A stretch of DNA of 20,548 bases from a virus (Duplodnaviria; Heunggongvirae; Uroviricota; Caudoviricetes), in IMG/VR virus record IMGVR_UViG_2872698443_000003; one strand, written 5' to 3'. The notes under the pieces were generated by a model. That model saw only the letters and a program-made list of their open reading frames with translations. It searched no databases and was not told the origin of the DNA. Shown piece after piece: positions 4,505-20,548 of this stretch. Numbering within the stretch: the first letter of the stretch is position 1; each line of letters begins with the position of its first letter. A program made the translations under genes and the position numbers.

Positions 4505-4514
4505 TGTTAATTCC

Positions 4515-4811: not shown

Positions 4812-4824
4812 GATTTTCTCCTGA

Positions 4825-5340
4825 TTAAATTGCGTGAATAGCGTGACGAGGGAAGGGGAGGGTTACTGGCGCAAAAGGTATATCGTCGTCAAACTCCATA
4901 GGTGGTTCGCTGTGATTTACCTGCTTCTGAGGCTGCTGTTTTTGTTGCTGACCGTTATTTCGCTGAGGTGAAGACTGTTCATTGCTTCCTTGCTTGCCAC
5001 CAAGCATTTGCATGGTTCCACCAACGCCCACGATAACTTCGGTAGTGAACCGATCCTGTCCGCTTTGATCCTGCCATTTTCTTGTCCGCAATTTTCCTTC
5101 AAGATAAACCTCAGAGCCTTTTCGCAGATATTCGCTGGCAATTTCTGCCAGTTTCCCGCTCATTACCACACGGTGCCACTCCGTCTGCTCCTTTTGCTCT
5201 CCAGTTTGCTTATCACGCCATTGTTCTGACGTAGCAACTATAAGGTTTGCAAATGCCGTTCCTGATGGTGAATATCTGATTTCTGGATCATGCCCAAGGC
5301 GACCAATAATGATCACCTTATTTACGCCTCTACTTCCCAT
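4825..5340 (-). CDS. ssb: Phage single-stranded DNA-binding protein with a 15-residue extension after the canonical DDDIPF tail, 171 aa
   Basis: N-terminal OB-fold region closely matches E. coli SSB as recalled ([51 protein letters not shown]...[10 protein letters not shown]); C-terminus reads ...[24 protein letters not shown]. Confidence 0.88.
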
Positions 5341-6048: not shown

Positions 6049-6056
6049 AATTCACC

Positions 6057-6227
6057 TCAGAATGGACATGGCCCAAGGAAATAACGCTGGTTTAATACTT
6101 CGACTCGGGACAAATTAAGGCATACCCGCATTCCTTCGCGGTCACCATTATGGCGATACCAGAGAGCTTTTTGCGTGTACATGCGTCTCTGTAACTTGCT
6201 CTCCTTCACTGTGGTTGCAAGTGACAT
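6057..6227 (-). CDS. Small hypothetical ORF, 56 aa, strong SD (GGAGAT) but overlaps the 6148..6306 ORF out of frame
   Basis: Manual translation (MSLATTVKESKLQRRMYTQKALWYRHNGDREGMRVCLNLSRVEVLNQRYFLGPCPF). Confidence 0.3.
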   Translation of the reverse strand: MSLATTVKESKLQRRMYTQKALWYRHNGDREGMRVCLNLSRVEVLNQRYFLGPCPF

Positions 6228-6306
6228 GAATATCTCCTTCGTTACCGATTAATTCTTTCATCTGACGAATGAATTCTTCGTCTGACCAGTTATCTGTAAA
6301 ACTCAT
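6148..6306 (-). CDS. Small acidic hypothetical protein, 52 aa
   Basis: Manual translation; start ATG overlaps the upstream stop in ATGA at 6303-6306. Confidence 0.35.
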   Translation of the reverse strand: MSFTDNWSDEEFIRQMKELIGNEGDIHVTCNHSEGEQVTETHVHAKSSLVSP

Positions 6307-6455
6307 TTCCTGCGATACCACGGAATGTTGATCGCTGATTTCATCGCTTTATTTGCTTCAAGCCACATTTTGGAATCACCAATAAATCTGGCTATTACTG
6401 CTTTGTTCTGTGCAGCACGAAGCATCTGGTGATTAATGACTATTTCATTGCGCAT
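6303..6455 (-). CDS. Small hypothetical protein, 50 aa (MRNEIVINHQMLRAAQNKAVIARFIGDSKMWLEANKAMKSAINIPWYRRK)
   Basis: Manual translation; GGAGG 5 nt upstream of ATG 6455. Confidence 0.4.
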   Translation of the reverse strand: MRNEIVINHQMLRAAQNKAVIARFIGDSKMWLEANKAMKSAINIPWYRRK

Positions 6456-6574
6456 AACGCCTCCAGTTGTTTCTTTGCTGCTCTGATTAATTGTTTAACT
6501 CGGCGTGATAATTCAGATTCGTGCGGGTAGAAAGCGGACATGACGCCGCTACCCGCGAGCTGAAAGTGCATCAT
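6440..6574 (-). CDS. Small hypothetical protein, 44 aa from the internal ATG; the longer track ORF 6440..6679 would read through a terminator
   Basis: AAGGAG 7 nt upstream of ATG 6574; terminator 6641-6664 sits inside the longer track ORF. Confidence 0.4.
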   Translation of the reverse strand: MMHFQLAGSGVMSAFYPHESELSRRVKQLIRAAKKQLEALCAMK

Positions 6575-6640
6575 GGGTAACTCCTTATATTTGATTGCAT
6601 AACGAAAACGCCTCAAGTGAAGCGTTATTGGTATGCATAT

Positions 6641-6664
6641 AAAAAAGCCCCCACACTGGAGGGC
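6641..6664 (-). terminator. Rho-independent terminator on the minus strand
   Basis: Minus-strand RNA GCCCUCCAGUGUGGGGGC followed by UUUUUU. Confidence 0.55.
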
Positions 6665-6759
6665 AAAGAAGATTTCCAATAATCAGAACAAGTCGGCTCC
6701 TGTTTAGTTACGAGCGACATTGCTCCGTGTATTCACTCGTTGGAATGAATACACAGTGC

Positions 6760-6963
6760 TTATTCGCGAGCTTTGAGCATTGCGTCTGCAAACTTATATG
6801 CAGCGCTTGCTGCATAATTAACAGCTCCATCAGAATCATTATCGATAATCGATGGATTGCTAATCATTGCTTGCATAGCCTTTGCCGCGAAGTAATCACG
6901 TAATGTCGCATCACTTGCCATTTCTGGGCGTTTGATATCTGCTTCGTAAAACTCGCACATCAC
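6760..6963 (-). CDS. Hypothetical early protein, 67 aa
   Basis: Track ORF; start overlaps the upstream stop (ATGA at 6960-6963). Confidence 0.5.
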   Translation of the reverse strand: MMCEFYEADIKRPEMASDATLRDYFAAKAMQAMISNPSIIDNDSDGAVNYAASAAYKFADAMLKARE

Positions 6964-7256
6964 TCACCTCCCAGAGCCTTGATGATTGCTGCAAAACCTT
7001 TATTAACAGCTCCATACCATTCTGGATATGTTGTCGTTGTTCTATTTTTGGATTGCTTAAGTAATAACTGAAGTGCTTCGAGAAGGTCAGGTGCTGCCGC
7101 TATTAGATTGGCATCTTCAATGCATTGAACTTCCTCACAGATTGCAATATACGAACGCCAGCCTGCGCCATTTTCAAGAGAGTCTGCCTGGATGATTTTA
7201 ATCTCATCGCCATCCATCATTATTTCCCACTTACCTTCAGTACCTTTAAATTCCAT
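6960..7256 (-). CDS. Hypothetical early protein, 98 aa
   Basis: Track ORF in the leftward operon. Confidence 0.5.
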   Translation of the reverse strand: MEFKGTEGKWEIMMDGDEIKIIQADSLENGAGWRSYIAICEEVQCIEDANLIAAAPDLLEALQLLLKQSKNRTTTTYPEWYGAVNKGFAAIIKALGGE

Positions 7257-7276
7257 GTTAGCCTCTGTTGTTTATG

Positions 7277-7307
7277 CCAAAAATAAAGGCCACCATCAGG
7301 CAGCCTT
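7277..7307 (-). terminator. Rho-independent terminator, related in sequence to the one at 2172-2194
   Basis: Minus-strand stem of about 9 bp (two G-U pairs), loop UGAU, then UUUAUUUUUGG; stop of the 7296..7496 ORF lies in the loop. Confidence 0.5.
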
Positions 7308-7496
7308 GTTGTTCAGTTTACCAAGTTCTCTGGCAATCATTGCCGTCGTTCGTATTGCCCATTTATCGACATATTTCCCATCTTCCATTACAGGAAACAT
7401 TTCTTCAGGCTTAACCATGCATTCCGATTGCAACTTGCATCCATTGCATCGTTTGAATTGTCCACACCATTGATTCTTATCAATAGTCGTAGTCAT
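7296..7496 (-). CDS. Cys-rich small protein, 66 aa, possible zinc-binding
   Basis: Track ORF; C-x4-C-x2-C-x5-C spacing in the N-terminal half. Confidence 0.5.
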   Translation of the reverse strand: MTTTIDKNQWCGQFKRCNGCKLQSECMVKPEEMFPVMEDGKYVDKWAIRTTAMIARELGKLNNKAA

Positions 7497-7574
7497 ACGG
7501 ATAGTCCTGGTATTGTTCCATCACATCCTGCGGATGCTCTTCGAACTCTTCAAATTCTTTTTCCATATCTCACC

Positions 7575-7901
7575 TCAAATAAGTGGTTTGCTGCCTAATT
7601 TCATTTTCTGGCGACCAACACAAGTCACACCCATTTCACTGCGTGGCTTGCTGTACCATGTGCGCTGATTCTTGCGCTCAATACGTTGCAGGTTGCTTTC
7701 AATCTGTTCGTGGTATTCAGCCAGCACCGTAAGGTCTATCGGATTCAGTGCGCTTTCTACTCGTGATTTCGGTTTGCGATTCAGCGAGAGAATAGGGCGG
7801 TTAACTGGTTTTGCGCTTACCCCAACCAACAGGGGATTTGCTGCTTTCCATTGAGCCTGTTTCTCTGCGCGACGTTCGCGGCGGCGTGTTTGTGCATCCA
7901 T
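7575..7901 (-). CDS. N: Antitermination protein N (lambda-like), 108 aa from the internal ATG
   Basis: MDAQTRRRERRAEKQAQWKAANPLLVGVSAKPVNRPILSLNRKPKSRVESALNPIDLTVLAEYH... matches lambda N as recalled; the track ORF's 30 extra N-terminal codons are not part of N. Confidence 0.9.
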   Translation of the reverse strand: MDAQTRRRERRAEKQAQWKAANPLLVGVSAKPVNRPILSLNRKPKSRVESALNPIDLTVLAEYHEQIESNLQRIERKNQRTWYSKPRSEMGVTCVGRQKMKLGSKPLI

Positions 7902-8011
7902 CTGGATTCTCCTGTCAGTTAGCTTTGAGTAACGCGCCGTGATGCTTATCTCCACGGTTGCTGTCTTGCAGCTGCATTTCGCGCTACTCAAAGCCTTCTG
8001 CTTTGAATGCT

Positions 8012-8042
8012 GCCCTTCTTCAGGGCTTAATTTTTAAGAGCC
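8012..8042 (-). promoter_or_regulatory. nutL site: boxA (GCTCTTAAAAATTAA) and boxB hairpin (GCCCTGAAGAAGGGC)
   Basis: Minus-strand sequence GAGGCTCTTAAAAATTAAGCCCTGAAGAAGGGCAGC, near-identical to lambda nutL as recalled. Confidence 0.85.
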
Positions 8043-8082
8043 TCACCTTCAATGGTGGTTAGTGCGTCCTGCTGATGGCTAA

Positions 8083-8111
8083 ATAGTACGATTTGTACTT
8101 TATCGAGTCAA
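8083..8111 (-). promoter_or_regulatory. Candidate pL promoter (-35 TTGACT, 17-nt spacer, -10 TACTAT) with operator palindrome AGTAC-N5-GTACT at 8085-8099
   Basis: Read on the minus strand upstream of nutL; palindrome overlaps the spacer and -10. Confidence 0.5.
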
Positions 8112-8174
8112 TACAAAATGTTCTAAATATAATTGGTTTTTTATAACGCTTTGTATTTAATGGGTTTATATTTT

Positions 8175-8206
8175 GGAAAAAGAAAACCCGACACTAAGGT
8201 CGGGTT
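8175..8206 (-). terminator. Rho-independent terminator downstream of cI
   Basis: 8-bp stem AACCCGAC/GTCGGGTT with 6-nt loop, followed on the minus strand by TTCTTTTTCC. Confidence 0.6.
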
Positions 8207-8236
8207 ATTGTTGTGTGCTTTAGAGTGGTGAGGCTG

Positions 8237-8896
8237 TTAACTAAATGTCTCTTCAGGCCACTGGCTGGCGATAACTTTCCCTACAACGGAACAGCTATCA
8301 TTGCATGGGATCATTGGATATTGCGGGTTTAGTGGCTGTAGGAACACCTGACCGCTATCCCTGATCAGTTTCTTGAAGGTAAACTCGTCACCACCAAGTC
8401 TGGCTATGCAGAAATCACCTGGCTCAACAGCCTGCTCAGGGTCAACGAGAATTAACATCCCGTCAGGAAAGCTTGGCTTGGATCCTGTTGGCGCGGTCAT
8501 GGAATTACCTTCAACTTCAAGCCAGAACGCACAATCACTGGCTTTTTTGGTTGTGCTGACCCATCTCTCCGCATCACCTTTGGTAAAGGTTCTAAGCTCA
8601 GGCGAGAACATCCCGGCCTGAACATGAGAAAAAACAGGGTACTCATATTGTTTTTTAACGGGGGCAGATGAGTATTCGCCAACAGGTGAAAATGTACCGT
8701 CGTGGTTGAATGAGACGTTATCAATACCAAGGTATTTAAACACCACACCAATCTCGTCAAGAGATGGATGACGAGATCCGCGCAACCAGTGACCAATTCC
8801 ACCCTGCGTCATACCAAGCTCTTCAGCTAACTTCTCTTGAGTTATGCCGAGCTCTTTCATTCTGGATCTAGCCAGTTCATACCATTTCATTTTCAT
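8237..8896 (-). CDS. cI: CI-type prophage repressor: lambda-identical C-terminal dimerisation/autocleavage domain, divergent N-terminal HTH domain
   Basis: From ...[39 protein letters not shown] onward the protein matches lambda CI as recalled; N-terminus ([37 protein letters not shown]) does not. Start is ambiguous (ATG 8896, 8890 or 8932; possibly leaderless). Confidence 0.85.
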
Positions 8897-8952
8897 ACCC
8901 TTATTATTACGCTCTGTACTAAAACCATCCATGCACAAGATGTATTTTTTGT

Positions 8953-8981
8953 TTGCATTCTAAAAGTACATATCGTATTAT
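8953..8981 (+). promoter_or_regulatory. Candidate pR promoter (-35 TTGCAT, 17-nt spacer, -10 TATTAT) with operator half-palindrome AGTAC-N5-GTATT at 8965-8979
   Basis: In the 70-110 bp cI-cro divergent region; motif related to the pL-side palindrome. Confidence 0.45.
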
Positions 8982-9007
8982 TGTTTCATGGTTACTATGG
9001 AGGGCAT

Positions 9008-9223
9008 ATGAGCAACCTACGAAAATATCGAGAGTCACTGAATATCTCTCAAACAACACTTGCTAAGGCAGTTGGATGCACACAGGGAGCTATCGGACAT
9101 TGGGAATCTGGTCGTCGCTTCCCAGACCTTAAAACATGCCGTGCTCTTGTTGAGTGCCTAAACAAGTTAGGCGCAAAAGTCAGTCTTGATGACGTGTTCC
9201 CGCCGGAACACAAAGCCGCTTAA
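9008..9223 (+). CDS. cro: Cro-like HTH (XRE-type) repressor, 71 aa
   Basis: ATG 9008 with GGAGGG upstream; HTH ISQTTLAKAVGCTQGAIGHWESG; position between the operators and nutR. Track ORF 8837.. has a spurious N-terminal extension. Confidence 0.75.
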   Translation: MSNLRKYRESLNISQTTLAKAVGCTQGAIGHWESGRRFPDLKTCRALVECLNKLGAKVSLDDVFPPEHKAA

Positions 9224-9231
9224 GACATTCC

Positions 9232-9263
9232 CGCTCTTACACATCCCAGCCCTGAAAAAGGGC
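9232..9263 (+). promoter_or_regulatory. nutR site: boxA CGCTCTTA and boxB GCCCTGAAAAAGGGC
   Basis: CGCTCTTACACATCCCAGCCCTGAAAAAGGGC, near-identical to lambda nutR as recalled. Confidence 0.85.
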
Positions 9264-9342
9264 ATCAAATTAAACCACACCTATGGTGTATGCATTTATT
9301 TGCATACCTTCAATCAATTGTTATCTAAGGAAATACTTACAT

Positions 9343-9636
9343 ATGGTTCGTGCAAACAAACGCAACGAGGCTCTAAGAATCGAGAGTGCGTTGCTTAACA
9401 AAATCGCAATGCTTGGAACTGAGAAGACAGCGGAAGCTGTGGGAGTTGATAAGTCGCAGATCAGCAGGTGGAAGAGGGATTGGATTCCAAAGTTCTCAAT
9501 GCTGCTTGCTGTTCTTGAATGGGGCGTCGTCGACGACGATATGGCTCGATTGGCACGACAAGTTGCTTCGATTCTCACCAATAAAAAACGCCCGGAGGCA
9601 ACCGAGCGTTCTGAACAAATCCAGATGGAATTCTGA
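9343..9636 (+). CDS. cII: Transcriptional activator CII (lambda-like), 97 aa
   Basis: [75 protein letters not shown]... matches lambda CII as recalled; ATG at 9343. Confidence 0.9.
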
Positions 9637-9668
9637 GGTCATTACTGGATCAATCCACAGGAGTCATT

Positions 9669-9815
9669 ATGACAAAACAACTCAGTCCTTACCAGGACAA
9701 AATTCACAAACACATACTACGTGATCGCTTCCTGTCCAGCTTCAAGCAGCCTGGTCGATTCCGGGCTGAGTTGGAAAAAGTGAAGCTGATGCAGAAGGAG
9801 AAAGGTCATGAGTAA
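9669..9815 (+). CDS. Small hypothetical protein, 48 aa, between cII and the replication initiator
   Basis: Manual translation ([48 protein letters not shown]); AGGAG 6 nt upstream; overlaps the next start by 8 nt. Confidence 0.4.
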
Positions 9816-10668
9816 TCTTGCAACCGTAACACATTTAAGGCCTTCACAACGGCCTGTGGAGCGTCGTGTGGCAGAAGTTGAAGATGGTTATACCCGTCTT
9901 GCAAATGCCCTGTATGAAGAGCTTATCGGCGCAGATTTAACGAAAAATCAGAGCAAGGTTGCCCACGCCATATGCCGTAAAACATACGGCTACGGTAAAA
10001 AGATGGATCGCATTTCTGATAGTCAGTTAGCTCAAATTACCAGGCTGCCAAGACAGAAGGTAAACAAGGCCAAGAATGAGCTTATCGCGATGAAGGTTAT
10101 CCTTCGCGAAGGCCAGCAAATCGGGCCTAACAAGAACATCGAAGAATGGCAAATCGAAGGGTGTCACTACTCTGGTGATAATGTCACTGCATTGGTGACA
10201 AAAAGTGTCACCAAAACGGTGACAGCGCTGTCACCAAAACAGGGACACACAAAAGAAACTATTACAAAAGAAAAAAGAAATAATAAAAACACTATGTCCG
10301 AAAGTGTTCGGACGGAGTGTGAAAAATCATCTGACCGTCACGAAGAAACCGACAAGGCATTCGAGGAAATATTCTGGTGTGCAGGCATGCGGAAAGCCGG
10401 GAAGAAAAACGCGGCTTCGGCATTCAGAACACAGTTCAGGGAATGGCGTAAAACTACCAGGGGTACGGCAAGCGAGTTTGCCACGATGCTGGCAGAAGAC
10501 ATCGCATGCAGGAATGGTAAGCAGTTCGGATTCGACAGGTTGTTACCATCGAGCTACCTGAACGGTCAACGCTGGAACGACGAGAAGCCAGAAACTATTC
10601 AACCACAATCCAAACCATCATCCGCAATCACCGTATCGAAAACTGGCTACGTGTTTTTCGACAGGTGA
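9808..10668 (+). CDS. Replication initiator / replisome organiser (O-like), 286 aa, with origin iterons inside the gene
   Basis: Track ORF at the O position after cII; internal GTGACA/TGTCACC iterons plus AT-rich tract. Confidence 0.6.
10160..10296 (+). repeat. Candidate replication origin: iterons (GGTGACA-N5-TGTCACC, GGTGACA-N4-TGTCACC plus half-sites) followed by an AT-rich tract at 10250-10296
   Basis: Seen directly: ...GGTGACAAAAAGTGTCACCAAAACGGTGACAGCGCTGTCACCAAAACAGGGACACACAAAAGAAACTATTACAAAAGAAAAAAGAAATAATAAAAAC. Confidence 0.6.
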
Positions 10669-10671
10669 ACC

Positions 10672-10779
10672 ATGAAATCAAAAATCAAATCGCTACTGGT
10701 CGCTGGTTATAACCACGGCTGGTTAAGTATTTCGTTTGTCGATTTCTGGTTTAAAAATCTCAATCTGAGGGAATCATGA
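10672..10779 (+). CDS. Micro-ORF, 35 aa, hydrophobic (MKSKIKSLLVAGYNHGWLSISFVDFWFKNLNLRES)
   Basis: AGGTGA upstream; stop overlaps the primase-helicase start (ATGA at 10776-10779). Confidence 0.3.
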   Translation: MKSKIKSLLVAGYNHGWLSISFVDFWFKNLNLRES

Positions 10780-12656
10780 CGCCAAGTGAACTTAGCGACC
10801 TGCTTTGGGCGCAGGTTGACAGGGTGGCTCCGCACCTGTTGCCAAACGGCAAGAAAGAGGGGCATGAGTGGGTTGCCGGTAACGTCAACGGTGACAAGGG
10901 AAACAGCCTTAAGGTCAACCTTAGCGGCAAGAAAAAATGGGCTGATTTCGCTGAGGGAGACGGCGGTGACATGCTTGATTTGTGGATGGCATGTCGTGGA
11001 ATTAACCTGCATCAGGCTATGCAGGAAGCGAAAGCCTTTCTCGGAATCAAGGATGACGATCACCATTTCGATGCCAAACGTGAGAAGAAATTCTCCAGAC
11101 CTGACCGCAAGAAAATCGCCCGCTACGTTACCAGAACAGAATCCCATCTTGAGTACCTGCAATCGCGTGGCATATCGCCAGAAGTCGTAAAGCGCTACGA
11201 GGTTGTCAGCGGCAAGGTGTGGAAGGGAGAACGAGAACTTGATGCACTGGTGCTTCCGTACAAACGCGATGGTGAGTTGTTGCAGGTCAAGCGAATCAGC
11301 ACTGAGCGCCCGGACGGGAAGAAAGTCATTATGGCAGAAGGTGATTGCGAACCTTGTCTGTTCGGATGGCAGGCTCTGGACGCTGGCGTGAGGGCGGTTG
11401 TGCTTTGCGAAGGCGAAATTGATTGTATGAGCTATGCGCAATACGGCATCTCGGCGTTATCCGTGCCGTTTGGTGGAGGGAAAGGCGCTAAGCAACAGTG
11501 GATTGAGTTTGAGTACCACAACCTCGACAGGTTTGAGGAAATATTCATCTCGATGGACGTTGATGATGTTGGTCGTGAAGCCGCAAGGGAAATCGCAAGC
11601 CGACTCGGTGAACATCGTTGCCGTCTTGTTACTCTGCCGTACAAAGACATCAACGAATGCCTGATGAACGGTGTTACCGAGGATGAAATCTGGCAGTACA
11701 TCGGCACGGCATCCTACTTCGATCCTGAAGAACTCTACAGTGCGCGAGAGTTTTACCAGGACACTATCAACGCTTTCTACGGCAAGCAGCAGTATCTGTT
11801 TAATCCACCGTGGGAATCTCTGGCAGATAAATTCCAGTTCCGTGAGGCAGAGTTGACGCTGGTCAATGGTGTGAACGGTCACGGAAAAACGGAGGTTGTC
11901 GGGCATATGGCACTTGAGGCAATGCGTCAGGGTGTGAAGACGTGCATCGCGTCACTTGAGCTGAAGCCTGGTATTCTCCTTAAGCGCCTTACCCGTCAGG
12001 CGACGTGCTGCAAGATGCCGCCAGTGCTGGAAATTGACTCTGCATTTAAATTTTATGACGAAAGACTTTGGGTGTTTGGTCTGACCGGAACGGCGAAAGC
12101 CGACAGGCTGATCGAAATATTCGACTACGCTCGCCGCCGATACGGGATCCAGTTATTCATCATCGACAGCCTGATGAAATGTGGCATAGGCGACGATGAC
12201 TATAACGGGCAGAAGGCGTTTGTTGACTCGATTTGCGACTTCAAAAACAAAACAAACTCCCACGTCATTCTCGTTACTCACTCGCGAAAAGGAGACAGCG
12301 AAGAAAAACCAACCGGGAAAATGGACGTAAAAGGCTCTGGAGCGATAACAGACCTGACAGACAACCTTTTCATCATCTGGCGTAACAAGGCTCGCGAGAG
12401 AGCGTTACAGAGAGTTCAGAGTGGTGAAAAGATGTCAGAGAAGGACGAACAGCTACTGGCATCTCCGGCATCTGTTTTGATGCTTGAAAAACAACGTAAC
12501 GGCGAAGGTTGGGAAGGTGGTGTCCCGTTGTTCCTTGACGAGCAATCGCACCAGTTCCTGCAACTTGAATCAGGATCGCCATATAGCTACATCGCCAATA
12601 TGCCGAAATCGGAATATGACGAGGCGTGGCGACAGGAAAACGTGACGGAGTATTAA
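10776..12656 (+). CDS. Bifunctional primase-helicase (Toprim domain plus DnaB/RecA-like helicase core), 626 aa
   Basis: Toprim-like VVLCEGEIDCMS and ISMDVDD; Walker A NGVNGHGKT; Walker B-like LFIIDSL; occupies the lambda P position. Confidence 0.7.
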   Translation: MTPSELSDLLWAQVDRVAPHLLPNGKKEGHEWVAGNVNGDKGNSLKVNLSGKKKWADFAEGDGGDMLDLWMACRGINLHQAMQEAKAFLGIKDDDHHFDAKREKKFSRPDRKKIARYVTRTESHLEYLQSRGISPEVVKRYEVVSGKVWKGERELDALVLPYKRDGELLQVKRISTERPDGKKVIMAEGDCEPCLFGWQALDAGVRAVVLCEGEIDCMSYAQYGISALSVPFGGGKGAKQQWIEFEYHNLDRFEEIFISMDVDDVGREAAREIASRLGEHRCRLVTLPYKDINECLMNGVTEDEIWQYIGTASYFDPEELYSAREFYQDTINAFYGKQQYLFNPPWESLADKFQFREAELTLVNGVNGHGKTEVVGHMALEAMRQGVKTCIASLELKPGILLKRLTRQATCCKMPPVLEIDSAFKFYDERLWVFGLTGTAKADRLIEIFDYARRRYGIQLFIIDSLMKCGIGDDDYNGQKAFVDSICDFKNKTNSHVILVTHSRKGDSEEKPTGKMDVKGSGAITDLTDNLFIIWRNKARERALQRVQSGEKMSEKDEQLLASPASVLMLEKQRNGEGWEGGVPLFLDEQSHQFLQLESGSPYSYIANMPKSEYDEAWRQENVTEY

Positions 12657-12685
12657 ATGACCATCTACATCACTGAGCTAATAAC

Positions 12686-12717
12686 AGGCCTGCTGGTAAT
12701 CGCAGGCCTTTTTATTT
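12686..12717 (+). terminator. Rho-independent terminator after the primase-helicase
   Basis: Stem AGGCCTGC/GCAGGCCT with 8-nt loop, followed by TTTTTATTT. Confidence 0.6.
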
Positions 12718-12732
12718 GGGGGAGAGTAAATC

Positions 12733-12939
12733 GTGGCTGAGTTTATGCTCGTCGCATTCAAATGCGTTGGCGTTGGATGGATTCTTCTGACGTTTTTTAT
12801 TGTTCTGCATAGCTACATTCGTCTTGTGAATGACGGTAAAGACCCATGGTATACGTTGTTTGGCGCTGCATTTGTCTGGGTGATTATCGGTGTTATGCCT
12901 GTCGCTGTAGCAAAAATGGCGTGGCGTTTTGTGAGTTGA
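12733..12939 (+). CDS. Small membrane protein, 68 aa, two predicted transmembrane helices
   Basis: Track ORF, GTG start with GGGGGAGAG upstream; hydrophobic stretches LVAFKCVGVGWILLTFFIVL and FGAAFVWVIIGVMPVAVA. Confidence 0.5.
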   Translation: MAEFMLVAFKCVGVGWILLTFFIVLHSYIRLVNDGKDPWYTLFGAAFVWVIIGVMPVAVAKMAWRFVS

Positions 12940-12956
12940 ACTGAGGGTAAGTATCG

Positions 12957-13313
12957 ATGGACGAATCAAGAAAGCAGTTTGAGGAATACGTTGCCAAAAA
13001 ATTGAGATTACCATTCGAGATGATAACCGAGGCAAGAAATGGTGATAGGTACTTCGCATTTTCAAGCATGGATATTCGTCACTCCTTAAATGAGTGGTGG
13101 ACTTTATGGCAGGCATCGCGAGCAGCTATTGAACTGGATATCGACTGGCCAGAATCGAATGACGACTTTTGGAAAGATGGTGAAGAAGGTGCTTATGCGA
13201 TGGGTTATGAGGATGGGCGTGACAAAACGGTAATTGCAGTAATGAAAGCTATCAGAGCCGCTGGAATTAAAGAGAAGAATTTCGATGAAGCAAACAATAT
13301 TCCTCCGAACTAA
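12957..13313 (+). CDS. Hypothetical acidic protein, 118 aa, at the position lambda uses for ren
   Basis: Track ORF; GAGGGT upstream. Confidence 0.5.
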   Translation: MDESRKQFEEYVAKKLRLPFEMITEARNGDRYFAFSSMDIRHSLNEWWTLWQASRAAIELDIDWPESNDDFWKDGEEGAYAMGYEDGRDKTVIAVMKAIRAAGIKEKNFDEANNIPPN

Positions 13314-13695
13314 GCAACAACAGCAAGCCGCAATCAACGCCATCCTCGCAACACCACTCGATAAAGACAAGCCAGTCACCATCCGCATTACTGACTACAA
13401 GCGCAACCTTGACCAGAACGCAAAATTTCACGCGATGCTGGCGGATATCGCACGTCAGGTTCAATGGTGCGATAAGTGGTTAAAACCAGAACAATGGAAG
13501 GTTTTGTTGATTAGCGGTCATGCAGTGGCAACAAAGCAGGAAGCTGATGTTTTACCCGGCCTTGAAGGCGAATACGTCAACATTCGCGAAAGCAGCGCGC
13601 AGATGAGCGTGAAGCGTATGGCAAGTCTTATCGAGTACACAACAGCATGGGCTATTGGTCAGGGTGTCAGATTTACCGACAGGAGGTACGAATGA
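13285..13695 (+). CDS. ninB: NinB (Orf) recombination mediator, 136 aa
   Basis: Track ORF; similar in length and in the central ...LDQN... region to lambda NinB as recalled. Confidence 0.7.
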
Positions 13696-13868
13696 GGCGA
13701 CAGCGACGAAGTTTCACCGACATCATCTGCGAAAACTGCAAATACCTTCCAACGAAACGCTCCAGAAATAAACGCAAGCCAATCCCAAAAGAATCTGACG
13801 TAAAAACCTTCAATTACACAGCTCACCTGTGGGATATCCGGTGGCTAAGATATCGTGCGAGGAAATGA
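13692..13868 (+). CDS. ninE: NinE, 58 aa
   Basis: [58 protein letters not shown] matches lambda NinE as recalled; ATG 13692 with AGGAGG upstream; ATGA overlap with ninB. Confidence 0.85.
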
Positions 13869-14212
13869 CAATGGATTATTCACAGTTAAGTGATTTTGAA
13901 ATTAACAGAATGGTAGGAGACATAATTTTTAAAGGCCTTTGGGCAAGTAAACCGGAAACATCAGGGAATAACACCAACAAATGGTATTACGGAAATGCTG
14001 ATACAACTTTTGAGCCATTAAATCATTTGCCTGACTACTGCAATGATCCGAGCGCTTCATGGCCGATTATTGAGAAATACAGGATTTCTATCTTAGACCA
14101 GTTAACTGAATGGTGTGTGGATGCAAAAGGCGTAAGCCCAATATTTGATACCAGACCTCTCCGCGCCGCCATGATTGTCTTTCTCATGATGCAGGACGCC
14201 AATAATGCTTAG
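13865..14212 (+). CDS. Hypothetical nin-region protein, 115 aa (possibly DUF2591/NinX-like)
   Basis: ATG 13865 overlaps the ninE stop (ATGA); track ORF 13829.. has a short upstream extension. Confidence 0.5.
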
Positions 14213-14381
14213 CCCATCCCAATCCCTTCAATACCAGAAAGAAAGCGTCGAGCGGGCTTTAACGTGCGCTAACTGCGGTCAGAAGCTGCATGTGCTGGAA
14301 GTTCATGTGTGTGAGCACTGCTGCGCAGAACTGATGAGCGATCCGAATAGCTCAATGTACGAGGAAGAAGACGATGAATGA
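14205..14381 (+). CDS. ninF: NinF, 58 aa, below the track cutoff
   Basis: Manual translation [58 protein letters not shown] matches lambda NinF as recalled. Confidence 0.8.
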
Positions 14382-15096
14382 GTTAATAAATGGCAATGCC
14401 ATCAAAATGACAAGCATTGAAATCGCTGAGTTGGTGGGTAAGCGTCATGACAATGTGAAACGTACCATCGAAACGCTGGCTAAAAATGGTGTTATCCGGC
14501 TTCCTCAAATTGAGGTTTCCGAAAGAATCAATAACTTAGGGTTCAATGTTCAGTACGAGCATTACGTCTTCGAGGGCGAACAAGGTAAGCGAGACAGTAT
14601 TGTCGTTGTTGCCCAGTTGTCGCCAGAGTTCACCGCTCGCCTTGTTGACCGTTGGCGAGAGCTTGAAGAAGCTGCGGTTAATATCCCCAAAACGCTACCG
14701 GAAGCGTTGCGCCTTGCTGCTGATCTTGCTGAGCAGAAAATGCAGCTGGAAAACCAGCTCGCAATTGCCGCACCTAAAGTTGAGTTTGCCGATCGCGTTG
14801 GCGAGGCCAGCGGAATTTTGATTGGAAACTTTGCAAAGGTTGTTGGAATTGGTCCAAACAAACTGTTTGCGTGGATGCGCGATCACAAAATCCTTATTGC
14901 TTCAGGTTCCCGGCGCAATGTGCCAATGCAGGAATATATGGATCGCGGCTATTTCGCAGTGAAAGAAACAGCGGTCAACACAAATCACGGAATACAGATA
15001 TCGTTCACCACAAAAATCACCGGGCGTGGTCAACAGTGGCTGACCAGAAAGCTGCTCGATAACGGAATGCTGAAAGTAACCGGGGAGGCTGCTTAA
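14374..15096 (+). CDS. Rha-family phage regulatory protein / antirepressor (Rha-like N-terminus, KilAC/Ant-like C-terminus), 240 aa
   Basis: Track ORF; N-terminal [30 protein letters not shown] is typical of Rha proteins; family assignment from recalled features. Confidence 0.6.
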   Translation: MNELINGNAIKMTSIEIAELVGKRHDNVKRTIETLAKNGVIRLPQIEVSERINNLGFNVQYEHYVFEGEQGKRDSIVVVAQLSPEFTARLVDRWRELEEAAVNIPKTLPEALRLAADLAEQKMQLENQLAIAAPKVEFADRVGEASGILIGNFAKVVGIGPNKLFAWMRDHKILIASGSRRNVPMQEYMDRGYFAVKETAVNTNHGIQISFTTKITGRGQQWLTRKLLDNGMLKVTGEAA

Positions 15097-15386
15097 TGGC
15101 TAACCTACGCAAAGAAGCGCGCAACAGAGAATGCCAGGTACGTATTTACGGCGTATGCAATGGCAACCCTGAAACTACAGTTCTGGCACATTACCGGATG
15201 GCTGGAATTTGCGGAACGGGAATGAAACCTGACGACCTGATCGGCGCATGGGCTTGTAGCGCGTGTCACGATGAAATCGACCGACGTACCCATAATATCG
15301 ACAACAAAGACGCCAGACTTTACCACCTCGAAGGCGTGATCAGGACGCAGGCGATACTGCTGAAGGAGGGGAAGATTAAGTCATGA
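15096..15386 (+). CDS. YbcO-like (DUF1364) protein, putative nuclease, 96 aa
   Basis: Resembles DLP12 YbcO as recalled (CQVRI.GVCNGNPET.VLAH.R..G.CGTG.KP.DL...ACSACHDEIDRRTH). Confidence 0.7.
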   Translation: MANLRKEARNRECQVRIYGVCNGNPETTVLAHYRMAGICGTGMKPDDLIGAWACSACHDEIDRRTHNIDNKDARLYHLEGVIRTQAILLKEGKIKS

Positions 15387-15745
15387 ACGAATATCAGTTT
15401 GTGCTTCCATACCCGCCGTCGGTGAACACCTACTGGCGAAGACGGGGAAGCCAATACTACATCAGCGATAAAGGCCAGAAATACCGAAAAGACGTTCAGA
15501 AAATCATCCGCCAACTCAAGTTAGACATTTTCACCAAATCACGACTCCGCATCAAAGTAATCGCAGACGTTCCAGACTCCCGCCGCCGCGACCTCGATAA
15601 CATCCTGAAAGGTTTACTCGACTCACTTATCCACGCCGGATTTGCGGAAGACGACGAGCAATTCGATGACATTCGCGTAATTCGTGGCGTGAAAGTACCA
15701 GGCGGAAGGCTTGGAATAAAAATCACCGAACTGGAGAACGCATGA
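15383..15745 (+). CDS. rusA: RusA-type Holliday-junction resolvase, 120 aa
   Basis: Length and motifs (LPYPPSVN.YWR, DRRRRDLDN) match RusA as recalled. Confidence 0.8.
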   Translation: MNEYQFVLPYPPSVNTYWRRRGSQYYISDKGQKYRKDVQKIIRQLKLDIFTKSRLRIKVIADVPDSRRRDLDNILKGLLDSLIHAGFAEDDEQFDDIRVIRGVKVPGGRLGIKITELENA

Positions 15746-15930
15746 ACGCCACAATTCAAACGATACCAGAGCTTCTTATCCAGACACGAGGCAATCAGAC
15801 CGAAGTGGCGAGGATGCTTTCCTGCGCAAGAGGAACAGTGCTCAAGTACAACCGAGACAGCAAAGGTGAGCGTCACGTAATAGTTAACGGCGTCCTGATG
15901 GTCAAACAGGGCAAGAGGGGAAGACCATGA
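15742..15930 (+). CDS. ninH: NinH, 62 aa
   Basis: TIPELLIQTRGNQTEVARMLSCARGTVLKYNRDSKGERHVIVNGVLMV resembles lambda NinH as recalled. Confidence 0.75.
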   Translation: MNATIQTIPELLIQTRGNQTEVARMLSCARGTVLKYNRDSKGERHVIVNGVLMVKQGKRGRP

Positions 15931-16136
15931 GACTCGAAAGCGTAGCTAAATTTCACTCGCCAAAAAGCCCGATGATGAGCGACTCACCACGGGCCACGGC
16001 TTCTGACTCTCTTTCCGGTACTGATGTGATGGCTGCTATGGGGATGGCGCAATCACAAGCCGGATTCGGAATGGCTGCATTCTGCGGTAAGCATGAACTC
16101 AGCCAGAACGACAAACAAAAGGCTATCAACTATCTG
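15927..16136 (+). pseudogene. Q: Late antiterminator Q, N-terminal 70 codons only, interrupted by IS1
   Basis: MRLESVAKFHSPKSPMMSDSPRATASDSLSGTDVMAAMGMAQSQAGFGMAAFCGKHELSQNDKQKAINYL matches lambda Q residues 1-70 as recalled; the track ORF then reads into the IS1 end. Confidence 0.9.
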
Positions 16137-16191
16137 GGTAATGCTGCCAACTTACTGATTTAGTGTATGATGGTGTTTTTGAGGTGCTCCA

Positions 16192-16467
16192 GTGGCTTCT
16201 GTTTCTATCAGCTGTCCCTCCTGTTCAGCTACTGACGGGGTGGTGCGTAACGGCAAAAGCACCGCCGGACATCAGCGCTATCTCTGCTCTCACTGCCGTA
16301 AAACATGGCAACTGCAGTTCACTTACACCGCTTCTCAACCCGGTACGCACCAGAAAATCATTGATATGGCCATGAATGGCGTTGGATGCCGGGCAACTGC
16401 CCGCATTATGGGCGTTGGCCTCAACACGATTTTACGTCACTTAAAAAACTCAGGCCGCAGTCGGTAA
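16192..16467 (+). CDS. insA: IS1 InsA, 91 aa
   Basis: [43 protein letters not shown]... recognised. Confidence 0.95.
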
Positions 16468-16889
16468 CCTCGCGCATACAGCCGGGCAGTGACGTCATCG
16501 TCTGCGCGGAAATGGACGAACAGTGGGGCTATGTCGGGGCTAAATCGCGCCAGCGCTGGCTGTTTTACGCGTATGACAGGCTCCGGAAGACGGTTGTTGC
16601 GCACGTATTCGGTGAACGCACGATGGCGACGCTGGGGCGTCTTATGAGCCTGCTGTCACCCTTTGACGTGGTGATATGGATGACGGATGGCTGGCCGCTG
16701 TATGAATCCCGCCTGAAGGGAAAGCTGCACGTAATCAGCAAGCGATATACGCAGCGAATTGAGCGGCATAACCTGAATCTGAGGCAGCACCTGGCACGGC
16801 TGGGACGGAAGTCGCTGTCGTTCTCAAAATCGGTGGAGCTGCATGACAAAGTCATCGGGCATTATCTGAACATAAAACACTATCAATAA
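16386..16889 (+). CDS. insB: IS1 InsB' transposase reading frame, 167 aa (expressed as InsAB' by -1 frameshift)
   Basis: Track ORF matches IS1 InsB as recalled. Confidence 0.95.
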
Positions 16890-16969
16890 GTTGGAGTCAT
16901 TACCGTAATGTTGTTCTGAGAAATACTCATATTGGTTGCCTTGATCTTTTTTCATACGATAACACGCAG

Positions 16970-17728
16970 GTGCTTGTAAAAACCAATACCAATAAAATTA
17001 GCTATGGTAACTCATATGAAAAAATTAATTTCCCGGGAGTTCAGATTCATGATTTTAACGCTATGGTTGAGACTTGGACATCATCTATATCAATAGATAA
17101 TCTTGTTATAAATGGTAGTGGTAGGTTATCTAGAATATCTAACTCATTTACATTTAATACGACATCATCGGATTCTCGCGTATTTGATTTTTGGCAGTAT
17201 ACATCTGATGGAGCTGCTGTTTGTAATATTTACAGAAATGAAATTAGCTCAGATTCTCAGTTTCATCATGATGGTACAACTATAGGAGTGGTGATACCAA
17301 TAGCAAATACCGATAATAAGACACTGCGAGTTGTTATTGATAAAAATGTTTTTAAATGTCAAGGGAAAGAAGTCACATTATCTTTCATGGCTGTAAATGG
17401 GTTGCCATCTGTTCAAACTAAAATTTCCGTGAACTTGATATTGAGCTATTCTTCATCATTAGGCGTTCAAAGAGTATATTCATTCGGTGAGTTTGATATT
17501 GGTAGTTCATGGGGGTTGAAAAAATTCACATTAGCAATACCTTTTGAAGGTCTTGTGTCCGCAAGCGATGCGAATGCTTATTTATCCTTTTCGCTTCCAA
17601 AATCACAAGAAGTAAACATCATCATAGCCAATGTTAATTTATGCAAAGGAAATGTTGCTGTGCAGGGGCCGAGTGATTTAAAGGATTGGGATTTACTATC
17701 TAGATCAATTGCATACTACGGTAGTTAA
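16970..17728 (+). CDS. Low-GC Ser/Thr/Asn-rich hypothetical protein, 252 aa; possibly the C-terminal receptor-binding part of a tail fibre or another surface-interaction protein, probably 5'-truncated
   Basis: Track ORF with GTG start; the frame is open upstream into the IS1 right end (no stop from 16772 by my reading); composition resembles fibre distal domains. Function not recognised. Confidence 0.4.
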   Translation: MLVKTNTNKISYGNSYEKINFPGVQIHDFNAMVETWTSSISIDNLVINGSGRLSRISNSFTFNTTSSDSRVFDFWQYTSDGAAVCNIYRNEISSDSQFHHDGTTIGVVIPIANTDNKTLRVVIDKNVFKCQGKEVTLSFMAVNGLPSVQTKISVNLILSYSSSLGVQRVYSFGEFDIGSSWGLKKFTLAIPFEGLVSASDANAYLSFSLPKSQEVNIIIANVNLCKGNVAVQGPSDLKDWDLLSRSIAYYGS

Positions 17729-17732
17729 TATT

Positions 17733-17759
17733 CCAGCCCCGAGATAATCTCGGGGCTGG
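17733..17759. terminator. Bidirectional terminator / perfect 13-bp inverted repeat (CCAGCCCCGAGAT-A-ATCTCGGGGCTGG) between convergent genes
   Basis: Seen directly in sequence. Confidence 0.6.
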
Positions 17760-17765
17760 CATTAT

Positions 17766-19109
17766 TCATCTAACTTCTACTTTATATCGAACTCCGCGTC
17801 CAAGTAAGATAGAAATGAAAGATGACAAAATCATCAAGGCAATTAAGAACACGATGCTATCAAACATGTATGCCAAGCCTATAGGGGGAGACAGCATTAT
17901 TGCCAATGCCCTGCAATAGAAAGATGCTATGAAAGAAGAGTAGAATATATCGCTTCTTAATCTAATGTTTTTTGCTTTACATACACGACCAAGTATCCAG
18001 CCAAAAAATGCAGTCATGAATAAACCGCCGACAAAGCCAAAGTAAACATAACCAGCAAGATCAAAGTGACTTGTTGGCCCCCTTGCTACATCATCCCCAA
18101 GATACCATACCTTCCAAATCATTCTGCCAACATCATTGGCTGAGTAGTCATATCCAAGCATGTTTTGCATTATCCCATTCCCGGCTATATATCCGAATAG
18201 TTGTAGAAATGCATTTTTTACTTGCAACATGTCAATAACTGCATTTGGGAGTGAGAAGTAGTATGCGTCTCCATTTGCAAATATCCGCATGAATAACATT
18301 TCAACAACAACAGGGGCGTCCATGTAGTTTGATTTTGTATACCCTATTGCTGCTGAATTATATGATATTAGGAATAGCACATAAGCAACAAGAGATACGG
18401 ATATAATTAAAAAAACAACCGCACTTTTTATCGTTAGCCTTGGTTTACGACCTGTAAAAATATAAATTGCAATTATAGCAACTAGCAAATGCTCTAGGAG
18501 AGAAAGTTTTGCGCCTGAAACAAAAGACGCAATTATAGATATAATTATAGCTATAAGTGCTATTGATGCTCTTTTCAACCCTCTGGACTTTACTGCCATG
18601 ACAGAAAGATATCCAGTGAGCATCAGTCTTACAACATCAAGTATCCTTACGATAGCACCAAGACCTCTGTTTGCCTCAAACCTAGACTGTACAAAGGCAT
18701 CAAAAGATATACTTTTTATATATATTACCGTTAGTGATATATAAAATATTAGCAACAAATAGAATATTATTGATGAGTTTTTTTTGCATGTATTAAATAC
18801 CTTGTCAGTTGTTCCAAGTAGTCTAAATTTAGGTGTTCTATATGCCAAGTGCATAAACGAAGCCAATACAATCCAGTTTAGAATAATCATGTAGAACAAG
18901 TGATCAGGAATGTAGTTGTAATTCCATAGCATTAATACTATTGCGTAAGAAGTTCCAAATGTGAAGGTAAAATAGAAGTGTATTGGATCTATCACTCCTA
19001 CTGCCAGCTTCCTTACCGTCATGTAACATAAAACAGTTGTTACTGTAGCGTACAGTAAATACTCTGACCAATTTGAAAATATAAAATAAAAAAAGTCTAT
19101 ATCACTCAT
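17766..19109 (-). CDS. Polytopic inner-membrane protein, 447 aa, about 30% GC, Wzy/O-antigen-polymerase-like or GtrS-like; candidate lysogenic-conversion gene
   Basis: Hydrophobic segments throughout the track ORF; very low GC versus about 50% in the rest of the prophage; sits in the int-proximal slot where P22/KplE1-type phages carry O-antigen modification genes. Confidence 0.55.
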   Translation of the reverse strand: MSDIDFFYFIFSNWSEYLLYATVTTVLCYMTVRKLAVGVIDPIHFYFTFTFGTSYAIVLMLWNYNYIPDHLFYMIILNWIVLASFMHLAYRTPKFRLLGTTDKVFNTCKKNSSIIFYLLLIFYISLTVIYIKSISFDAFVQSRFEANRGLGAIVRILDVVRLMLTGYLSVMAVKSRGLKRASIALIAIIISIIASFVSGAKLSLLEHLLVAIIAIYIFTGRKPRLTIKSAVVFLIISVSLVAYVLFLISYNSAAIGYTKSNYMDAPVVVEMLFMRIFANGDAYYFSLPNAVIDMLQVKNAFLQLFGYIAGNGIMQNMLGYDYSANDVGRMIWKVWYLGDDVARGPTSHFDLAGYVYFGFVGGLFMTAFFGWILGRVCKAKNIRLRSDIFYSSFIASFYCRALAIMLSPPIGLAYMFDSIVFLIALMILSSFISILLGRGVRYKVEVR

Positions 19110-19390
19110 AGCTTTACCATACTTGCTTCATCTCACAACAAGATTCAGATTGAATTTATCACACTTTATCACTTTAATGCAGAGCTTCCCACTAACAACT
19201 TCATGAACAGAACATCTTAACAATCATAACATGCTAAAAAATTGTTTAGCATTTGACTTTGTGTACATCATGATGTAAGCGCCAAATTACATGGTTAATA
19301 ATAGACCAATTGCATGAGAAAGAAATTAGACACACAAAGCTTTGTACTGGGTTGCAAGGCTTTGTGCTATTCGATAGTTGTTAAGGTGGA

Positions 19391-20548
19391 TCACTCAGGC
19401 TTTTCATCAAGCCAGTCCGCCCACCACTGCATCATTTCTCTGCGCTTATCGAGATACTGCGCATGGTTGTAAATACCGCGCACAGATCCGCCGTTGGCAT
19501 GTGCCAGTTGCATTTCAATAGCATCAGCAGGCCATTCGTTCTCGTTCATAATCGTGCTGAATTCATGCCTGAATCCGTGACCGCTTTCCAGACCCTCATA
19601 GCCGATTTGTTTGATCACAAGCAATACCGCGTTCTCGCAGATTGGCTTCTTCTTATCGTTGCGCCCGGCAAAAACAAACTCTGAGACTGGTTTGGTGATT
19701 GAGCTTAGCGTAGTGAGAAGTTCAACCACCTGGTCTGACATCGGGACCACATGAATTTTGCGTCCCTTCATCACACTGGCGTCGATGGTGATAATCCTGT
19801 TTTCAAAATCGACGTTCTTCCATAGCATGGAACGAAGTTCTTTTGTTCTGAGGGCTGTGTAGCGTAAAACTTTGGTTGCAATGAGCGATACGATACTTCC
19901 TGAAAATGTTGCCAGTGCTTTGTTGAATGCCGGGATCTGGTCTGCAGGAAGAAACGGGAAGTTCTTCTTGCGGTATCCCTTCATGGCGTCAGCAAGGTCA
20001 GGTGCCGGGTTATATTTAGCCCTGCCGGTGACAATAGCGTAACGGAAAACCTCGCCGCATCTTCTGCGGGCTTTATTTGCTCGCTCCATTGCACCGCGAT
20101 CTTCAAATCTGCGGATTACTTCCAGCAGTTGCATCGGCTCAATATCCTGAATTTCAAGGCCGCCGATGATAGGTAAAATGTCGTCATCAAACATTTTTGC
20201 AAGTTCATTTGCATAGCCTACTGACCAGACTTGCTTCTTGTGCTCGTACCATTCCTTGTAAATCGCACTAAATGAATTGTTGTTAGACGAAGCCTTTTTC
20301 GCCTTTACCGGATCGATGCCAACCGAGATGTCTTTCCTCGCAGTCCATGCCTTATCCCTTGCTTCCTGCAAAGTCATAAGCGGATATTTTCCGACGGTCA
20401 GGATTTTCTCCTTACCGTCAATCTTGTAGCGAAGCTGCCATACCTTTTTCCCGGATACAGGAACATAAAGGTACAGGCCATTACCATCGAGAAGGCGGTA
20501 TGGTTTTTCTTTCGGCTTTGCTGCTTCAATCTGCTTAACGGTGAGCAT
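19391..20548 (-). CDS. intS: P4-family tyrosine integrase (IntS-type, argW-specific), 385 aa; start codon is the last three bases of the window
   Basis: MLTVKQIEAAKPKEKPYRLLDGNGLYLYVPVSGKKVWQLRYKIDGKEKILTVGKYPLMTLQEARDKAW... matches K-12 IntS as recalled; catalytic R..HxxR..Y region present. Confidence 0.9.
   Translation of the reverse strand: MLTVKQIEAAKPKEKPYRLLDGNGLYLYVPVSGKKVWQLRYKIDGKEKILTVGKYPLMTLQEARDKAWTARKDISVGIDPVKAKKASSNNNSFSAIYKEWYEHKKQVWSVGYANELAKMFDDDILPIIGGLEIQDIEPMQLLEVIRRFEDRGAMERANKARRRCGEVFRYAIVTGRAKYNPAPDLADAMKGYRKKNFPFLPADQIPAFNKALATFSGSIVSLIATKVLRYTALRTKELRSMLWKNVDFENRIITIDASVMKGRKIHVVPMSDQVVELLTTLSSITKPVSEFVFAGRNDKKKPICENAVLLVIKQIGYEGLESGHGFRHEFSTIMNENEWPADAIEMQLAHANGGSVRGIYNHAQYLDKRREMMQWWADWLDEKPE

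Follow-up and report, generated by a model that had tools for sequence, protein, structure and literature searches.

A prophage-borne Wzy-type polymerase paired with a tailspike domain in Escherichia coli O5, and its probable role in O-antigen polymerisation

Introduction

Phage-borne Wzy polymerases are already known from Salmonella phage epsilon15, Pseudomonas aeruginosa phage D3, and prophages of Acinetobacter. In the conversion of Salmonella serotype O10 to O15 by epsilon15, the host alpha-polymerase is blocked and a phage beta-polymerase is supplied, and the conversion uses several proteins, including an inhibitor. The second polymerase encoded by D3, Wzy-beta, joins the host units by another linkage, so that both the serotype (O5 to O16) and the phage receptor are changed (PMC4815439). 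In Acinetobacter baumannii, a prophage Wzy encoded outside the polysaccharide locus (K127 and related capsule types) polymerises the units and sets the structure that is made (PMC9241936, PMC13228068). Here, we analysed a stretch of 20,548 nucleotides of viral DNA (Caudoviricetes; IMG/VR record IMGVR_UViG_2872698443_000003), hereafter called the window, in which an open reading frame (ORF) at positions 17766–19109 of the minus strand encodes a predicted O-antigen (oligosaccharide repeat-unit) polymerase. This gene, the phage wzy, belongs to a P22/Sf6-like prophage of Escherichia coli and lies between a tailspike gene and the integrase gene intS.

The locus shares some features with each of these systems and departs from each in others. 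As in D3, a temperate phage would supply a second O-antigen polymerase, but D3 also encodes Iap, a small peptide that inhibits the host Wzy-alpha, whereas no such gene was found in the E. coli cassette and the host wzy is mutated instead. Epsilon15 is likewise an enterobacterial podophage with conversion genes placed right after the tailspike gene, but the E. coli cassette has a single gene. The Acinetobacter Wzy proteins act on capsule rather than O-antigen, come from another phage type and another Wzy family, and have not been reported in a tailspike–wzy cassette. The oac gene of Sf6 and the gtrABC genes of P22 and KplE1 occupy the same tailspike–int junction and, like the phage wzy, are presumed to modify the O-antigen that a P22-like phage integrating at argW uses as its receptor; however, their products decorate the finished polymer with acetyl or glucosyl side groups, whereas a phage Wzy would change or supply the polymerisation step.

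For E. coli, a second wzy outside the O-antigen cluster was raised only as a possibility in a 2019 review, by analogy with Pseudomonas (PMC7685785). We found no description of a phage-borne wzy in E. coli, or of the genetics of the O5ab and O5ac subtypes, in the literature covered, most subscription journals being outside that coverage. The restriction of the gene to particular serogroups, the recurrent loss of the native wzy, and a tailspike–wzy cassette common to unrelated podophages appear to be new. We consider it probable that the Wzy of a P22/Sf6-like podophage integrated at argW took over or changed the polymerisation of the O5 antigen, and that the native wzy was lost in most carriers.

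Results

The phage protein is a predicted Wzy-type polymerase

An initial annotation, made from the sequence alone, had read the ORF as a multi-pass membrane protein resembling an O-antigen polymerase more than the glucosyltransferase GtrS, and had proposed that it could be a phage-borne alternative polymerase, or another envelope-remodelling protein, acting in serotype conversion or superinfection exclusion. The ORF itself is sound, with an ATG start and a product of 447 amino acids (aa). Because homologues with 51–81% identity are present in other genera and dN/dS is 0.03–0.04 relative to the Enterobacter and Cedecea copies, it is not a chance reading frame. The protein matches the NCBIfam model TIGR04370 ("oligosaccharide repeat unit polymerase") over positions 9–394 of 396, scoring 44.3 bits where the curated cut-off is 40 (E = 1.2e-11). 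The native O5 Wzy matches the same model with 50 bits, and the two proteins are 21% identical. No Pfam family was matched at E <= 1, and neither Pfam nor NCBIfam yielded a Gtr-family match. A sequence search of the PDB with a 20-sequence profile gave no match, and nothing specific emerged from the PDB sequence and Foldseek searches together.

The AlphaFold (AF2) model is all-helical, with approximately 12–13 membrane helices and one loop of 93 residues, which bears out the multi-pass topology proposed initially. In fold, the model is nearest to FtsW, RodA, and WaaL, with WaaL a weaker match than the SEDS polymerases, and the predicted structure is consistent with the SEDS/WaaL/Wzy fold of lipid-linked glycan polymerases. 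Polytopic inner-membrane proteins of this kind (10–14 helices) have large loops holding conserved charged residues, and the phage protein shows the same arrangement: invariant residues occur in the loops at 134–150 and 256–348 (R143, E145, N147, E270, R275, D281, R329, H348, and D350), and R155, D158, and R161 stand at the start of the helix following the first of these loops.

Chromosomal homologues place the protein in the same functional setting. A homologue with 38% identity in the rfb cluster of Enterobacter adelaidei lies between two GT2 genes, in the order rmlC, aminotransferase, wzx, GT2, homologue, GT2, gnd, ugd, and another with 33% identity in the O-antigen cluster of Pseudomonas sp. 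MPDS lies between wzx/GT2 and WbpL-type genes. Both stand at the wzy position of clusters of the Wzx/Wzy type, which is the only wzy-like position in those clusters. In an exhaustive profile search of 1.84 billion representatives, 340 clusters scored at E <= 0.001. The identical protein occurs on 68 contigs. Databases label the protein "O-antigen polymerase" by homology, and its PHROGs family, phrog_14022, is listed as "unknown function". A tblastn search of the phage Wzy against 50,697 phage records returned no match, and it therefore has no close relative among the Wzy proteins of these sequenced phages.

Two other identities were considered and rejected. A WaaL or Wzy_C (PF04932) protein is contradicted by the lack of any Pfam family at E <= 1 and by the structural match to WaaL being weaker than that to the SEDS polymerases. 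A GtrS in a GtrABC cassette is contradicted by the absence of any Gtr-family match and of gtrA and gtrB anywhere in the window; for the latter we relied on the PGAP annotation of the matching sequence in strain TUM9754, the remainder of the window holding only an IS1 element, a tailspike fragment, wzy, and intS. The initial annotation had noted that these partners were missing, and its preference for Wzy over GtrS is upheld by the model match, the fold, the position of the homologues, and the host distribution described below. We conclude with high confidence, on the basis of these comparisons, that the protein is a Wzy-type repeat-unit polymerase, which is probably functional.

Carriers are confined to O5 and O114 strains and have mostly lost the native wzy

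Among 5426 complete E. coli genomes, the phage wzy was found in eight. All eight are included in the 35 genomes that contain the O5 wzx–wzy pair (hypergeometric P = 1e-18, a value overstated by the kinship of the strains). A variant with 48% identity occurs in four genomes, all of which belong to the nine with an O114 cluster. The O5 and O114 clusters have the same gene order, and their native Wzy proteins are homologous (29% identity, E = 9e-50). The repeat units of both are of the form Qui3N-Ribf-Gal-HexNAc. Ribofuranose is described for both antigens (PMC7685785).

The state of the native gene ran parallel to that of the prophage. The two carriers with complete prophages have no null allele, the native O5 wzy being intact in B25FEP and altered only by the missense change E221G, at a position aligned with a non-conserved residue, in ws5-3, whose prophage is a mosaic variant. 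The other six carriers have prophage remnants and a null native wzy, produced by three independent mutations: a 1-bp deletion at about nucleotide 468 in FDAARGOS_1248, which retains a remnant of about 10 kb; a 1-bp deletion at about nucleotide 561 in ZF34 and ZF31, in which an IS1 abuts the phage wzy and the tailspike gene is gone; and a Leu151-to-stop mutation in S163-2, TUM9754, and DETEC-P61, which are identical to the window and have an IS1 in the tailspike gene. The phage wzy was intact in all copies compared, even though adjoining phage genes had been deleted or interrupted.

Of the 27 O5 genomes without the phage gene, 26 have an intact native wzy. In 20 of them, the gene is identical to an intact allele or is itself annotated as intact; in the other six, this is inferred from bit scores equal to that of an annotated intact allele. 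The exception, 19SZHZ886Rt, has the nonsense allele of S163-2 together with the same IS3 insertion in dsdC and an empty argW site. It is most simply explained as a descendant of the S163-2 lineage that lost the prophage array, and from its gene content it should have no O-antigen polymerase and be semi-rough or rough. The glycosyltransferase gene adjoining the native wzy is also altered in this strain.

In the O114 genomes, the native wzy is frameshifted in all four carriers, with two different alleles. One of these, a T7-to-T8 change at nucleotide 409, is common to 90-9280, ETEC-2264, and LR882978, and is annotated as "frameshifted" in 90-9280. The five non-carriers all have a native wzy of intact length, and the two checked are both annotated as intact. 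Both frameshifts of the native O114 wzy (loci L053, positions 10245–11577, and L055) lie in poly-T runs (T7/T8). They could reflect slipped-strand phase variation, in which case the loss would not be permanent, or long-read homopolymer error. When O5 and O114 were combined, the native wzy was null in 10 of 12 carriers compared with one of 32 non-carriers (Fisher P = 3e-7, a descriptive value that ignores kinship).

Since the carriers are only O5 or O114 strains and their native wzy genes are mostly dead, the phage Wzy has most likely replaced the native enzyme in O-antigen polymerisation. In the lineage of the window, the phage wzy is probably the sole working O-antigen polymerase of the cell, because the native gene is interrupted by the Leu151 stop codon.

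Other prophages at argW in O5 strains carry acyltransferase genes next to intS, encoding proteins of 375 aa in NT1F10 (locus L032, positions 30805–33815) and 631 aa in S163-2 (locus L001, positions 13935–17757). O5 strains may thus also vary in O-acetylation.

The tailspike receptor-binding part and wzy form a mobile cassette

In B25FEP and ws5-3, the gene lies within complete P22-like prophages, in the order gp16 and other ejection protein genes, tailspike, wzy on the opposite strand, intS, and the tRNA-Arg gene argW. These two prophages and five IMG/VR viral contigs identify the phage wzy as an accessory gene of temperate phages, placed near the tailspike and int genes. The two strains have a common chromosomal flank, and their prophages differ in the portal, scaffold, capsid, and immI genes, with the tailspike–wzy–intS end kept.

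Every homologue with at least 48% identity (48–81%) adjoins a tailspike gene, as do all five matches on IMG/VR viral contigs. These homologues include those in P22-like prophages of Morganella and Xenorhabdus and the second E. coli variant, which is also in a P22-like prophage at argW. The homologues in Enterobacter asburiae and Cedecea belong to a different, integrated podophage, whose terminase is of the T7 type and has 78% identity to its counterpart in Yersinia phage YeP4. In these two loci, the cassette is situated between the tailspike gene and a holin–lysozyme–Rz block, and the same 78% terminase identity extends to Yersinia phages YeP4–6. To our knowledge, temperate phages with a terminase of this type have been little described.

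The receptor-binding part of the tailspike (residues 118–737) is 64–78% identical among the wzy-adjacent phages, including those with different backbones, unlike the N-terminal virion anchor, which tracks the phage type. The DNA match between the E. coli and Cedecea loci is one continuous segment of 3,022 bp with 73% identity, which begins within the tailspike gene and reaches as far as the wzy start. A block of approximately 3 kb, consisting of the tailspike receptor-binding part and wzy, therefore occurs in two unrelated podophage types and five genera, indicating that the tailspike receptor-binding domain and wzy together are the mobile unit. Such a pairing is what would be expected if the polymerase alters the receptor recognised by that tailspike. 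Among its only matches in the phage database, the receptor-binding part is weakly similar to a tailspike of phage St11Ph5 (23% identity, E = 2e-6), a phage isolated on an O5ab strain (PMC5764931).

We also looked for a counterpart of Iap. No conserved or hydrophobic small ORF that could encode an inhibitor of the host polymerase lies beside the E. coli gene within the cassette, and the 281-bp region upstream of wzy contains only non-hydrophobic ORFs of 29–31 aa with TTG or GTG starts. In the Morganella morganii prophage, a 47-aa ORF directly after wzy (locus L010, positions 11332–11475) encodes a single-pass membrane peptide, MNKHSKNANKNDVSMEKKEDAVVLLLLCSSVVLLILAGIKMLITSGA, which may correspond to the host-Wzy inhibitor Iap. 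Morganella is the only locus with such a peptide after wzy, and the E. coli cassette has none.

Organisation of the window

The prophage in the window is a decayed remnant with an IS1 element in its tailspike gene. Truncated by IS1, the tailspike fragment (positions 16905–17728, plus strand) is the 3' part of a P22-type tailspike gene and encodes its residues from about 465 to the last, 737. The ORF at positions 16970–17728 is the tail end of this fragment and not a separate gene; its product is 100% identical to residues 486–737 of the intact B25FEP tailspike, the gene for which is annotated as a "phage head-binding domain-containing protein". The tailspike fragment and wzy are convergent, their stop codons being 37 bp apart, and the spacer contains a hairpin with a 12-bp GC-rich stem (positions 17733–17759), found by a terminator scan and by reading of the sequence, which is likely to act as a two-way terminator.

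On the other side of wzy, intS (positions 19391–20548, minus strand) encodes a P4/KplE1-type tyrosine integrase with the Pfam domains Phage_integrase, Phage_int_M, and Arm-DNA-bind_3. Its stop codon is at position 19391, and the gap of 281 bp between int and wzy given in the initial annotation (positions 19110–19390) is exact. The attachment site, the tRNA-Arg gene argW, lies just past the end of the window, and in annotated genomes intS is followed by tRNA-Arg and yfdC. The 281-bp region, the presumed promoter region of the minus-strand wzy, is identical across all five E. coli copies compared, in which intS differs at up to 46 sites (36–46 between lineages). Between genera, the sequence upstream of wzy is not conserved, and the six loci do not align. 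Shuffled sequence gave more consensus sites in the promoter scan than the sequence itself did, and no site fell in the 281-bp region; a weak TTGTTA-16-TAAAGT motif about 60 nucleotides upstream of wzy was seen by eye only and is not counted as evidence.

The GC content of the wzy ORF is 35.4%, higher than the value of roughly 30% first assigned to it. The sharp drop in GC content is real, at 0.33–0.39 over positions 17001–19500 against 0.47–0.52 on both sides, but it is not limited to wzy, since the low-GC block extends from about 16905 to 19390 and includes the tailspike fragment. The proposal that wzy is a separately acquired cargo gene is corrected in its extent, the acquired unit being the two-gene block of tailspike receptor-binding part and wzy.

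The IS1 element (positions 16137–16904, plus strand; insAB at 16192–16889) was identified from its ORFs and from the IS1A annotation in matching genomes. It ends with GGAGTCATTACC at positions 16893–16904, as read from the sequence, and base 16905 is where homology to genomes without IS1 begins. To its left is a truncated Q antiterminator gene and to its right is the tailspike fragment. From the PGAP annotation of the identical sequence in TUM9754, positions 1–16904 contain an IS3 element in dsdC, torI, a lambdoid early region (ssb, a Rad52-type recombinase, kil, ral, N, repressor, cro, cII, replication genes, the nin region, and an antirepressor), and the Q gene truncated by IS1. The IS3-family element in dsdC, the D-serine regulator gene, lies within positions 1–1744 beside the torI-bearing end of the prophage. 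TUM9754 and 19SZHZ886Rt, the latter free of the prophage, share this insertion, which links the strains to a single lineage.

The window does not occur as one piece in any of the complete genomes. In the best-matching ones, S163-2 and TUM9754, positions 1–16904 and 16900–19400 are approximately 29 kb apart, and the interval holds the late genes of a second prophage, the 631-aa acyltransferase gene, DinI, a second intS, and a second IS1. The window reflects either IS1–IS1 recombination that deleted this interval in a relative or an assembly that collapsed both IS1 copies.

Discussion

A possible route to O5 conversion

The observations can be accommodated in the following scenario. A temperate P22/Sf6-like podophage, whose tailspike would bind polymerised O5 O-antigen, integrates at argW and brings in its Wzy. 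The gene stands on the opposite strand after the tailspike gene and has its own upstream region, so that the prophage could express it. In lysogenic cells, the phage Wzy would join undecaprenyl-diphosphate (Und-PP)-linked O5 units, flipped by the host Wzx, in the periplasm. If the linkage it forms is, as seems probable, other than that of the native Wzy, both the receptor and the serological subtype would change; the lysogen would then be guarded from superinfection, and phage progeny would not be trapped on cell debris. Mutation of the host wzy, rather than an inhibitor, would bring conversion to completion or make it permanent. Once the host gene is dead, the phage wzy would be indispensable and would outlast the decay of its prophage.

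The subtypes of O5 offer a likely place for such a change. The inter-unit linkage of O5ab is (1->4). O5ab and O5ac have the same tetrasaccharide unit and different inter-unit linkages (PMC7496230), and O5ac contains alpha-D-GalpNAc-(1->2)-beta-D-Quip3NAc-(1->3)-beta-D-Ribf (PMC9912281). A GlcNAc-P-P-Und 4-epimerase gene adjoins the O5 cluster, which would make GalNAc the initiating sugar, and the bond from GalNAc to Qui3NAc would therefore be the one made by Wzy. Because O5ab and O5ac differ only in that linkage, the phage wzy becomes a direct and strong candidate for the difference between them. A fuller version of this proposal, to which we give roughly even chances, is that the phage wzy is the O5ab/O5ac determinant, with carriers making GalNAc-(alpha1->2)-Qui3NAc; that its sister gene makes an undescribed linkage variant of O114; that the domesticated gene became the sole polymerase in most carriers once the native wzy had been lost repeatedly; and that the 3-kb block is mobile between unrelated podophages across Enterobacterales, pairing receptor recognition with conversion.

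Alternative explanations

The most serious alternative is that the phage Wzy works but forms the native type of linkage. In that case it would serve as a redundant or "rescue" polymerase and bring about no serotype conversion, and decay of the native gene would follow from redundancy. Loss of the native wzy is equally expected under plain redundancy, and no inhibitor of the host enzyme was found, both of which fit this explanation. However, the phage and native enzymes are only 21% identical, an enzyme making the same linkage would give the phage no protection of its lysogen, and the conservation, in several genera, of one kind of tailspike receptor-binding domain beside wzy is a prediction of receptor change. 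Moreover, two O5 polymers that differ only in the Wzy-made linkage are known (PMC7496230). We regard redundancy as rather unlikely. Still less likely is that the protein belongs to the Wzy/WaaL superfamily but serves another glycan, such as a capsule or an ECA-like polymer, or a ligase-type reaction, or that it is an exclusion protein unrelated to O-antigen. The lack of a Pfam match, a fold common to ligases and SEDS polymerases, and the unspecific PDB searches leave room for such a role, but the full-length match to a repeat-unit polymerase model and the location of chromosomal homologues at the only wzy-like position of two Wzx/Wzy-type clusters argue for polymerisation, and the restriction to O5 and O114 and the dead native wzy genes would be left without explanation. 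That the gene is inert cargo in a dead prophage, neither expressed nor functional, seems very improbable. The prophage in the window is wrecked, with IS1 in the tailspike gene, a truncated Q, and missing late genes, and no consensus promoter was found by scan; yet the ORF is intact in every copy compared amid deleted or interrupted phage genes, with a dN/dS of 0.03. Were the gene inert, a semi-rough phenotype would be expected, in five independent cases, of the carriers whose native wzy is dead, but 90-9280 is on record as O114:H49.

Takeover or change of O5 polymerisation by the phage Wzy remains the explanation we favour, and several points weigh against it. The linkage specificity of a Wzy is not readable from sequence, and expression, activity, substrate, and linkage are all inferred here. 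No inhibitor like Iap was found in the cassette, which makes conversion in a host with an intact native wzy, such as B25FEP, harder to account for. The number of independent events may also be smaller than it seems: S163-2, ZF34, and FDAARGOS_1248 differ at 0–3 sites in 5.2 kb of chromosomal flank, so that the host backgrounds may come down to only two, and the P values are overstated. Of the five null mutations, three alter a single base within a run of bases (T7/T8 in O114 and TTT in ZF34). Long-read assembly can introduce such changes in error, but the T8 allele of O114 is present in three assemblies. Finally, 19SZHZ886Rt has the nonsense allele without the prophage, and in the S163-2 lineage the nonsense mutation could be earlier than the phage.

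Implications

With genome-based O-typing, which reads only the galF–gnd cluster, all 35 strains would be typed as "O5" and six of the eight carriers as polymerisation-defective, and the gene that probably decides which polymer is made would be missed. If the link to O5ab and O5ac is true, an old serological subdivision gains a simple genetic explanation and a polymerase chain reaction (PCR) marker, and the scenario of a second wzy outside the cluster gains a worked example in E. coli. On our reading, a tailspike domain and an enzyme that would remove its receptor pass together, as a single block, from one phage type to another, and a host can come to depend on a prophage gene that outlives its prophage. 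Both would bear on the prediction of host range in phage therapy and on O-antigen vaccines.

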